The notes below the pieces were generated by a model. That model searched no databases, was not told the origin of the DNA, and saw only the letters and a program-made list of their open reading frames with translations. From contig DBQD01000042.1 of assembly GCA_002305715.1 (NCBI GenBank), forward strand, positions 12,436 to 76,435: DNA of 64,000 bases, in the 5' to 3' direction. The number at the start of each line of letters is the position of its first letter. The stretch's first letter is position 1. The position numbers were made by a program, and so were the translations under genes. This stretch comes from Proteiniphilum sp. UBA1403. GTDB lineage: Bacteria > Bacteroidota > Bacteroidia > Bacteroidales > Dysgonomonadaceae. Positions 23,398 through 25,735 of this stretch are shown piece by piece.

Positions 23398-24381
23398 ATG
23401 TACAATGTAAAAACATACTACCGAAAAGAAGAGCTTCCCTCCATGGAAGAGAGCAGTTTTTTTCATTCGGCCTCCGGATTCGACTGGTATAGTAATTCAC
23501 CAGCATATAAACCTCTGATGCTAGTTGCATTTGATGCCGACAGGCCAGTGGCTGCTTTATTTGCCGTAATTACACGCATTAACCGCTTTCTCAAGGGCAA
23601 GCTCTTTCAACGATGTTTCATTACACAGCAACCACAATTCTTTGAAAAGAACCTTTCACAAATAGATGTATTTGAAAAGCTGATAACCCATCTGGTTGAA
23701 GAAGTAAAAAATAAGGTATTTCTCATCCGATATGATAACTTGGGTAATGCAATATTTGGCTACAAAGGATTTCGTGCAAATAAATTCTATTCTGTAAAAT
23801 GGATCAATATCCGGAATTCATTACAGCGAAAACGCAAGATATGGGATCAGCTTTCTGCATCACGTAAGAATCAGGTCAATAAAGCAATGAAAAAAGGCCT
23901 GATTGTAGAGGAGTTTAAAACAGAAGAGAATTTACCGGAGCTATACAAACTCATTCAGCAGACGAATAACAAAAAAATTTGGCGCCGTTTACCTCCATAT
24001 CAGTATTTTAAAAATTACTTTTGTCATTATGTAAAAAAGGATAAAGGGAAGATACTTTTAACTCGCTATCAGGGCAAAATCGTTGGGGGAGCTTTTTTGG
24101 GGTTTGAGAAAAGAGAAACCGTTTACTGTCTCTATTACTGGGGTAAATCAAAACGATACAAGATGGTATACCCCACCATTTTCACCCTCTACACAGCAAT
24201 GAAGATGTCTGAAGAACAAGGATTTCAATATTTTGATTTCATGGATGTGGGTTTTCTTGATAAACGAGCAGGCAGATCGCGTTTTCTATTACAATTTGGT
24301 GGAAAACAAAGAGCTACTCGACGTTGGTACAGGTTCAACTGGTCTCTGTTGAATTTCTTTGCCAATAAGTTATACGACTAA
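23398..24381 (+). CDS. GNAT/FemAB-fold protein (Acetyltransf_6-like)
   Basis: SASRKNQVNKAMKKGL, FDFMDVG, FLLQFGG motifs of Fem-like fold. Confidence 0.7.
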   Translation: MYNVKTYYRKEELPSMEESSFFHSASGFDWYSNSPAYKPLMLVAFDADRPVAALFAVITRINRFLKGKLFQRCFITQQPQFFEKNLSQIDVFEKLITHLVEEVKNKVFLIRYDNLGNAIFGYKGFRANKFYSVKWINIRNSLQRKRKIWDQLSASRKNQVNKAMKKGLIVEEFKTEENLPELYKLIQQTNNKKIWRRLPPYQYFKNYFCHYVKKDKGKILLTRYQGKIVGGAFLGFEKRETVYCLYYWGKSKRYKMVYPTIFTLYTAMKMSEEQGFQYFDFMDVGFLDKRAGRSRFLLQFGGKQRATRRWYRFNWSLLNFFANKLYD

Positions 24382-24495: not shown

Positions 24496-24527
24496 TTTGG
24501 TTTATTCCAACAGATGCAATATATTTG
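24496..24527 (+). promoter_or_regulatory. Consensus Bacteroidetes promoter with no downstream ORF on the same strand
   Basis: TTTG 24496-24499, 20-bp spacer, TATATTTG 24520-24527. Confidence 0.75.
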
Positions 24528-24533
24528 CATCGT

Positions 24534-24602
24534 GTTTTTCATGGTATTAGATTTAAGGTTAACAATGAAGATTGGTTGTCGTGAGACAACCATTCCTTTT
24601 TT
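24534..24602 (+). ncRNA. Candidate ~70-nt small RNA
   Basis: Promoter immediately upstream, unstructured 5' part (TTTTTCATGGTATTAGATTTAAGGTTAAC), GNRA-capped terminator hairpin; 5' end estimated from promoter spacing. Confidence 0.7.
24573..24602 (+). terminator. Intrinsic terminator of candidate sRNA
   Basis: TGGTTGTC-GTGA-GACAACCA followed by TTCCTTTTTT. Confidence 0.8.
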
Positions 24603-24808
24603 ATGGCGTTAGGTATACCAAAATTATGAGAACTCTACTTCTTATTATCGCAATCCAAACGATTTCATTTATTTCTACGATATTATTTACTAGATTTTAA
24701 ACACCAACATCTACTTTTAAAATGAGCTGTATGTTGAGAAAGTGAGAACTATTATTTCAAGGGTATAATTTTTCTACCTATTCTTCGCTGCTCACTAAAA
24801 TCCAAAAC

Positions 24809-25540
24809 TCACTTGTATTTCTCCCACAGATCGTTGTGAATGATTTGCCACGACTGCTCAATCAATTGAGGAATATCAGATTCCTTCACTCCTTCAGTGG
24901 ATATTGGTTTATGAATAATCAATTCTAACTTCGATGGACTCAACTGAAATGAGTCTCTTTTTAACACATCGTACGATCCATTGATGGTGAGCGGAACAAT
25001 TGGCAGTTTCAAATCATATGCTATATGATAGGCTCCTTTTTTAAAGGATCTCATTTTGCCTGTATGTGTTCGGGCACCTTCCGGAAAAATAACCATTGAA
25101 ACACCATCCACAATCTGTTCCTTCGCTCTCAATATTGAAGCTGTACGAGCGGCAAGGCTTGAATTATCTACAAAAACATGTCCAGCTTTCTCCGATGCAA
25201 AACCAACAAAAGGAATCTTGCGCAAACTAGCTTTCTGCATCCACTTTACATTCTGATTGAGAAATCCATATACTAGAAAAATATCATACGACCCTTGGTG
25301 ATTGGCAACAAAAACATAGGATTGTTTGGGATCCAAATTTTCATGTCCTCTTGTTTTTACACGGCAGAGAGTTAACCAGCAAGTGAAACGCGACCACCAC
25401 TTGGGAGGATAAAAACCCCAGTACTTACTCCCAAAAAGAGGAGCCATTACCATTACCAACAATGCGGTAATCAATGTAAGCAATAAAAAAAGTGGCACAA
25501 AAATGATCCACTGATATAAAAAATATACGATTCTTTTCAC
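24809..25540 (-). CDS. plsC: 1-acyl-sn-glycerol-3-phosphate acyltransferase
   Basis: NHQGSYD, IFPEGAR, PIVPL motifs; GTG start at 25540 chosen because a TATTTTTG promoter lies inside the longer ORF. Confidence 0.9.
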   Translation of the reverse strand: MKRIVYFLYQWIIFVPLFLLLTLITALLVMVMAPLFGSKYWGFYPPKWWSRFTCWLTLCRVKTRGHENLDPKQSYVFVANHQGSYDIFLVYGFLNQNVKWMQKASLRKIPFVGFASEKAGHVFVDNSSLAARTASILRAKEQIVDGVSMVIFPEGARTHTGKMRSFKKGAYHIAYDLKLPIVPLTINGSYDVLKRDSFQLSPSKLELIIHKPISTEGVKESDIPQLIEQSWQIIHNDLWEKYK

Positions 25541-25735
25541 TTTTTCACTTGATTCTGTGTCTACAATGCAAAAATAAATATTTTTGCAAATCATCAGACA
25601 TAAATATGTAGTTTTTGCAAATCAAACAGCTTTTTTCCAGATTAAACCATTTTTTATCACGATTTATTTCCTCGTTTGTTGAATTTTGTGTTTATTTGCG
25701 CTACGAAACAAATAACAAAATTATATACATCACAC

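Follow-up and report, generated by a model that had tools for sequence, protein, structure and literature searches.

Positions 24532–24605 (plus strand) of the 64-kb window, the 64,000-nt stretch of Proteiniphilum DNA that we analyzed, very probably encode a regulatory RNA of the FopS family that has its own promoter and terminator, and the 5′ end of this RNA most likely pairs across translation initiation regions. FopS was described as a 'family of paralogous sRNAs' in Bacteroides thetaiotaomicron (Nat Commun 2025; PMC11697453), where it comprises 14 paralogues of ~65–70 nt each, with canonical sigma-ABfr promoters and induction by bile salts.

Identification of the locus as FopS

Scanning the whole window at Rfam gathering thresholds yielded one match, RF04319 (BTncRNA_FopS), at 24532–24605 (+), which scores 77.5 bits where the gathering score is 56 (E = 1.2e-9 over the whole window). 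The match spans model positions 1–71 of 71 and predicts a transcript of ~70–74 nt. Because the covariance model fits end to end at this score, the features of the locus are far beyond chance; the same follows from the conservation of the promoter boxes and RNA body, but not of the spacer and flanks, in 12 orthologous loci. The initial annotation had noted an unverified resemblance to FopS, and the full-length Rfam match proves it correct. At the level of sequence, the locus is confirmed as a genuine copy of this already characterized Bacteroides small RNA.

A related RNA of B. thetaiotaomicron, GibS (RF04182), is ~140 nt long, carries a second seed (R2) and extra hairpins, and is transcribed from a promoter with a different motif, PM2 (PMC7366714). 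The GibS model reaches only 48.8 bits at our locus against a cut-off of 115, with only the shared 5′ seed aligning well, which rules out a GibS identity. Judging from the terminator scan, the fold and the GibS model score, the locus has a single terminator hairpin after the seed and no R2. Its promoter is of the sigma-ABfr type, with TTTG at 24496–99, a 20-nt spacer and TATATTTG at 24520–27.

The kind of gene is already known, and only the host family, represented here by a Proteiniphilum-like member of the Dysgonomonadaceae, is new. The gene adds little that is new in kind, since any Rfam-based annotation would label FopS here. The Dysgonomonadaceae are a host family where FopS has not been discussed in print, and we found no published literature on sRNAs in Proteiniphilum.

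Promoter, seed and terminator

Promoters in Bacteroidetes consist of a −33 TTTG box and a −7 TAnnTTTG box and, as expected from this, a sigma-70 promoter scan did not call a promoter at the FopS locus. The −33 box on the plus strand (24496–24499) lies within a TTTGG that is nearly invariant in 13 orthologous loci, and the −7 box (24520–24527, +) has invariant positions T41, A42 and T45–G48 in the alignment of these loci (alignment A1). The −7 box ends 4 nt before the predicted +1, a G at 24532.

From this +1, the first 41 nt of the RNA are predicted to be unpaired. They include a predicted single-stranded seed, GUGUUUUUCAUGGUAUUAGAUUUAAGGUUAA (24532–24562, +), which is the equivalent of the R1/R1′ region of the published family; it is unpaired in the Rfam consensus structure and agrees with the RF04319 model consensus. 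Within the seed lie the 5′ segment UUUUUCAUGG (24535–24544, +) and a putative anti-start-codon CAU (24540–24542, +), which we assign from the pairing mode of the published B. thetaiotaomicron interactions. The terminator scan and the fold place an intrinsic terminator at 24574–24602 (+), composed of a 7–8-bp stem closed by a GUGA tetraloop and followed by a U-tract. The hairpin, GGUUGUC-GUGA-GACAACC with a GNRA loop, occupies 24574–24591 (+), and the terminator scan places the U-run at 24597–24602 (+). The consensus promoter, the ~40 nt of unstructured sequence, the GNRA hairpin and the U-tract proposed by the initial annotation are therefore accurate in every structural detail.

The locus (24496–24602) lies between two convergent genes, an upstream FemAB/GNAT-like gene (23398–24381, +) and a downstream gene for a PlsC-type acyltransferase (24809–25594, −). 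We also noticed a 7-bp inverted repeat, GATGCAATATATTTGCATC (24513–24531), which overlaps the −7 box of the sRNA and is followed by the T-run of the sRNA 5′ end. The scan flagged this repeat as terminator-like, and the palindrome is preserved only in the two closest relatives (L004 and L005). Possible roles for the repeat are an operator or a terminator serving the FemAB-like gene upstream.

Conservation and distribution

Proteiniphilum belongs to the Dysgonomonadaceae in the order Bacteroidales, and not to the Bacteroidaceae. The closest relatives of the adjoining acyltransferase are found in other Proteiniphilum genomes at no more than 85% identity, and the protein is 65–85% identical among the orthologous loci. 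DNA downstream of the acyltransferase gene is retained in 12 relatives, and in each of them (12/12) a FopS match lies convergent to that gene; the FopS locus is therefore orthologous and vertically inherited. Across the 13 orthologous loci and one paralogue in alignment A1, the 60-nt RNA body (from +1 to the end of the stem) is 100% identical; both promoter boxes are kept, and the promoter spacer and 3′ flank are scrambled. This comparison indicates that every nucleotide of the 60-nt body is under strong purifying selection. Cultivable relatives with an identical body include Proteiniphilum acetatigenes DSM 18083 and P. saccharofermentans.

Beyond the family, the first 31 nt of the RNA show almost no variation in 16 other Bacteroidales families (alignment A2). 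The terminator helix is also maintained across families, with 96% of cells paired and compensatory change in 3 pairs, and the observed score was reached by 0 of 500 shuffles. The initial annotation had set conservation of the motif outside its own genome as a test of the proposal, and the motif emphatically is conserved, in 12 syntenic relatives and in 16 other families.

With the canonical FopS model, we found matches in 100 of 101 genomes and all 21 genera (21/21) of the Dysgonomonadaceae. Members of the genus carry ~3 FopS copies per genome regardless of genome size. Among sampled Bacteroidales, matches occurred in 40 of 201 genomes (about a fifth) and 30 of 160 genera; none was found in the sampled genomes from the rest of the phylum. 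FopS conservation was published as being within Bacteroidaceae (PMC11697453); the range of the canonical model is wider than this, being universal in Dysgonomonadaceae and extending to about one-fifth of sampled Bacteroidales genomes. The gene is thus inherited vertically at a syntenic site, with an RNA body conserved at every nucleotide.

FopS-like sequences are also present in four phage records (MT836368.1; PQ571285.1, Bacteroides phage BX-TP2; MT836359.1; and MT837453.1), at 81–97% identity to the Proteiniphilum copy. Their presence is in keeping with a suggestion in the FopS study that the family may be disseminated by phages (PMC11697453).

Copies in the genome

The Proteiniphilum genome contains three FopS matches: a copy on contig C27 (77.6 bits), the window copy, and a variant on contig C63 (C63:24643–24719, +; L021:344–420) that scores 49.5 bits, below the gathering score. 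The genome-wide paralogue count that the initial annotation asked for thus comes to two canonical copies and one divergent copy. The C27 copy has a body identical to that of the window copy and sits in an unrelated genomic context. The seed of the C63 variant, GUGGUUUUUUCAUAAUAGUAUUAGAUUUAAGG, carries a 3-nt insert (a GU and an AAU insertion); this copy has a promoter of its own (TTTG/TATATTTG) and a terminator stem that is different and longer. With this seed, pairing upstream of the AUG would be 3 nt out of register. The variant may represent a conserved subtype, given the steady three matches per genome in the genus.

Deletion of all 14 FopS copies was not achieved in B. thetaiotaomicron (PMC11697453). 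With 2–3 FopS copies and 31 susC genes, the Proteiniphilum genome would offer a simpler background for a clean whole-family knockout.

Coding or cis-acting readings of the locus

A small-protein gene at this locus is highly improbable. In the Proteiniphilum copy, the ATG at 24541 does open a frame of 23 codons, MVLDLRLTMKIGCRETTIPFLWR, and a peptide MVLDLRL...IGCRETT can be read in several other families. However, the stop codon of this frame (24610–24612) lies past the terminator U-tract, such that the terminated transcript would have no stop. Moreover, 3 of 16 other-family copies, like the genome's own C63 variant, have ATA in place of the ATG, premature stops interrupt the frame in 3 more, and the apparent peptide conservation is explained by nucleotide invariance. 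The authors of the B. thetaiotaomicron study likewise excluded sORFs at FopS loci (PMC11697453). We rejected a coding sORF at 24541 on the position of its stop and on the loss of its ATG or early stops in other-family copies, and the initial annotation's statement that the locus has no ORF holds, qualified by this non-credible frame. Equally hard to credit is a cis-acting element, whether as the terminator or 3′ UTR of the FemAB/GNAT-like gene or as a bidirectional terminator shared with the convergent acyltransferase gene. The hairpin does lie between convergent genes, the scan flags it on both strands, and one B. thetaiotaomicron family member is 3′-UTR-derived (PMC11697453). Yet the minus-strand hairpin has no T-run in the terminator scan, the −33 and −7 boxes of the locus stand at the right spacing and are kept in 12 orthologues, and the identical C27 copy has other neighbors. 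We rejected the cis-element reading on these three points, and the last two uphold the initial annotation's description of a stand-alone sRNA.

Proposed mechanism

In B. thetaiotaomicron, the FopS 5′ end is single-stranded and comprises an R1 seed common to GibS and a 3′ extension, R1′ (PMC11697453). By pairing over the start codon of susC and other mRNAs for exported proteins, the seed prevents initiation; in-line probing, compensatory-mutation EMSA and in-vitro translation established this, with deletion or CRISPRi strains also used (PMC11697453). Eight further targets were confirmed by EMSA, five of which are susC genes (PMC11697453). In the published IntaRNA table, CAU (nt 9–11) faces the start AUG, the U-run faces the next A-rich codons, and nt 12–33 face the upstream ~20 nt, at times across symmetric internal loops (PMC11697453). 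It is the extended R1′ seed, pairing upstream of the AUG and mainly at susC genes, that confers specificity, and not any MKK start (PMC11697453). The RRM-1 protein RbpB binds FopS and relieves repression, in a relationship of mutual antagonism (PMC11697453).

By homology to this system, we infer that the Proteiniphilum gene is transcribed, has mRNA targets that it represses, and is antagonized by an RRM protein. The gene has its own promoter, of the housekeeping Bacteroidetes type, and an intrinsic terminator that would end the transcript. The single-stranded, invariant 5′ end would most likely pair across the initiation region of target mRNAs, with CAU (nt 9–11) contacting the start AUG, the U-run contacting the following A-rich Lys codons, and nt 12–33 contacting ~20 nt upstream of the start codon. 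Such pairing would keep ribosomes from loading, above all on mRNAs that encode outer-membrane or exported proteins, SusC-type transporters among them. The geometry that the initial annotation had proposed, CAU against AUG and the U-run against Lys codons, is how FopS binds susC mRNAs according to the published work (PMC11697453). The genome encodes one RRM_1 protein (104 aa, 80.1 bits; contig C56), a candidate for the RbpB counterpart. This sole RRM-domain protein of the genome is a likely antagonist or partner of FopS, like RbpB in B. thetaiotaomicron.

Target search

We called 2068 genes by a crude procedure (longest non-overlapping ORFs, first ATG of each) and scored their start regions with a loop-tolerant, register-locked pairing-energy metric calibrated on published B. 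thetaiotaomicron sites. The metric reproduces the published sites, as it gives −18.0 kcal/mol for BT_3983, for which the IntaRNA E_hybrid is −18.4; the in-register energies of BT_1777, BT_0140 and BT_3174 are −22.5, −18.6 and −18.2 kcal/mol, respectively. Compared to the published B. thetaiotaomicron targets, which range from −16 to −22.5 kcal/mol, none of the 2068 called Proteiniphilum starts reaches −16, and the strongest is at −14.8 kcal/mol.

Widening the in-register, loop-tolerant scan to all 28,130 ATGs followed by an open frame of 50 codons or more revealed no excess of strong sites, with 36 at or below −16 kcal/mol versus 29±11 with flank-shuffled seeds, and 9 versus 8.8±3.4 at or below −18. 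The best possible starts, C44-32389 and C35-17862, were rejected as internal methionines. Unconstrained RNAduplex-type scoring of the 30-nt seed against 60-nt start regions gave counts barely above those of shuffled seeds, with loopy structures, and when all 107,893 ATGs were ranked by energy, the sites that came up were mainly not starts. Because the B. thetaiotaomicron predictions by IntaRNA themselves carry an FDR of 0.88 (PMC11697453), a prediction made purely in silico is not decisive for either organism.

The individual targets named by the initial annotation do not stand out. All four start sites exist (36 and 7784 on the plus strand, 38127 and 43792 on the minus strand), and the corresponding genes rank 718, 479, 577 and 139 of 2068, respectively, by in-register pairing energy. 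Genes opening with ATGAAAAA number 109 of 2068, and those opening with ATGAAAAAA number 69 of 2068. The weight that had been placed on a 9-nt match is likewise not borne out, as long in-register matches do not exceed the number obtained with shuffled flanks; contiguous in-register runs of at least 12 occur in 37 genes versus 36±11 in controls in which the upstream part alone was shuffled.

At the level of gene classes, the start regions of signal-peptide-like proteins pair better with FopS than others (p = 9e-22); most of this bias can be traced to the A-rich Lys codons found in signal peptides, so it is weak evidence of targeting. For the 31 susC genes, pairing is stronger than for all remaining genes (p = 1e-4), with a marginal lead over other exported proteins (p = 0.018), and their mean pairing exceeds that of 60 of 60 flank-shuffled seeds. 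What we see is thus a class-level bias alone, exported above cytoplasmic, with susC slightly higher again. The initial annotation's reading is supported in part, as to the stand-alone sRNA, the FopS family and the pairing geometry, but not as to its particular targets.

A blastn-short complementarity search pointed to the leader of an accessory susC gene (C14:79001–82111). Two sites there, C14:78748–78762 and C14:78801–78817 (L020), lie 246 and 192 nt ahead of the gene, respectively, and are complementary to FopS nt 2–18 over 14/15 and 16/17 nt; the second forms a predicted duplex of −21.8 kcal/mol. The gene has no orthologue in 25 congeners (best identity 37%). Two readings are equally open to these sites, namely targets in the leader or the remains of a decayed antisense FopS copy. 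Separately, we observed that three susC paralogues (C14:85359, C25:16989 on the minus strand, and C14:79001) share near-identical start regions, gtagagtttATGaaaagaa, and near-identical N-termini (MKRRLMM/MKRKLMM...), which suggests recent duplication of a PUL module.

Pairing versus protein binding

Another explanation, improbable but less so than the coding and cis-acting readings, is that the RNA acts mainly as a decoy or sponge, titrating an RbpB-like RRM protein rather than repressing particular mRNAs, with base-pairing secondary. The orthologues show no variation in any of the 60 nt, be it in the spacer, the stem or the loop, and other families differ little in the stem-loop; this constraint exceeds the need of a seed-only pairing model. 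FopS genes are also multicopy, no strong mRNA target is detectable in the Proteiniphilum genome, and in B. thetaiotaomicron an RbpB CLIP peak falls on each FopS and the two antagonize each other (PMC11697453). Against this, direct pairing, compensatory mutations and in-vitro repression without RbpB were shown in B. thetaiotaomicron, where the affinity of RbpB for FopS is merely micromolar (PMC11697453). The decoy and pairing roles are also not mutually exclusive.

With all 60 nt invariant and no high-affinity target detectable, there is a small probability that the sequence is constrained mainly by protein binding and not by mRNA pairing. A broader evolutionary version of this idea, to which we give slightly more credence while still considering it unlikely, is that FopS in small-genome Dysgonomonadaceae is under absolute 60-nt constraint without a high-affinity susC-type target. 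It might serve primarily as an RRM-protein ligand or decoy or as a low-affinity global damper of exported-protein translation, with PUL-specific repression in Bacteroides a later elaboration accompanying copy expansion. We favor the reading of the locus as a FopS RNA that would act mainly by pairing across initiation regions.

Comparison with known systems

The Proteiniphilum gene differs from B. thetaiotaomicron FopS in its host, a member of the Dysgonomonadaceae and not of the Bacteroidaceae, and in copy number, with two canonical copies and one divergent copy compared to 12–15 in Bacteroides. Furthermore, unlike the published B. thetaiotaomicron targets, the start regions of this genome lack 18–25-nt complementarity to FopS. 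With GibS it shares the R1 5′ seed, GUGUUUUUCAU.GUAUUAGAU, and GibS, like FopS, pairs with translation initiation regions. Relative to B. thetaiotaomicron FopS, its 5′ ~31 nt carry at most one base change, and both RNAs combine a sigma-ABfr promoter, a single-stranded 5′ seed, one terminator hairpin, a length of ~70 nt (predicted for the Proteiniphilum RNA) and multiple gene copies. As in B. thetaiotaomicron, the genome that carries these copies also encodes an RRM-1 protein and many susC genes.
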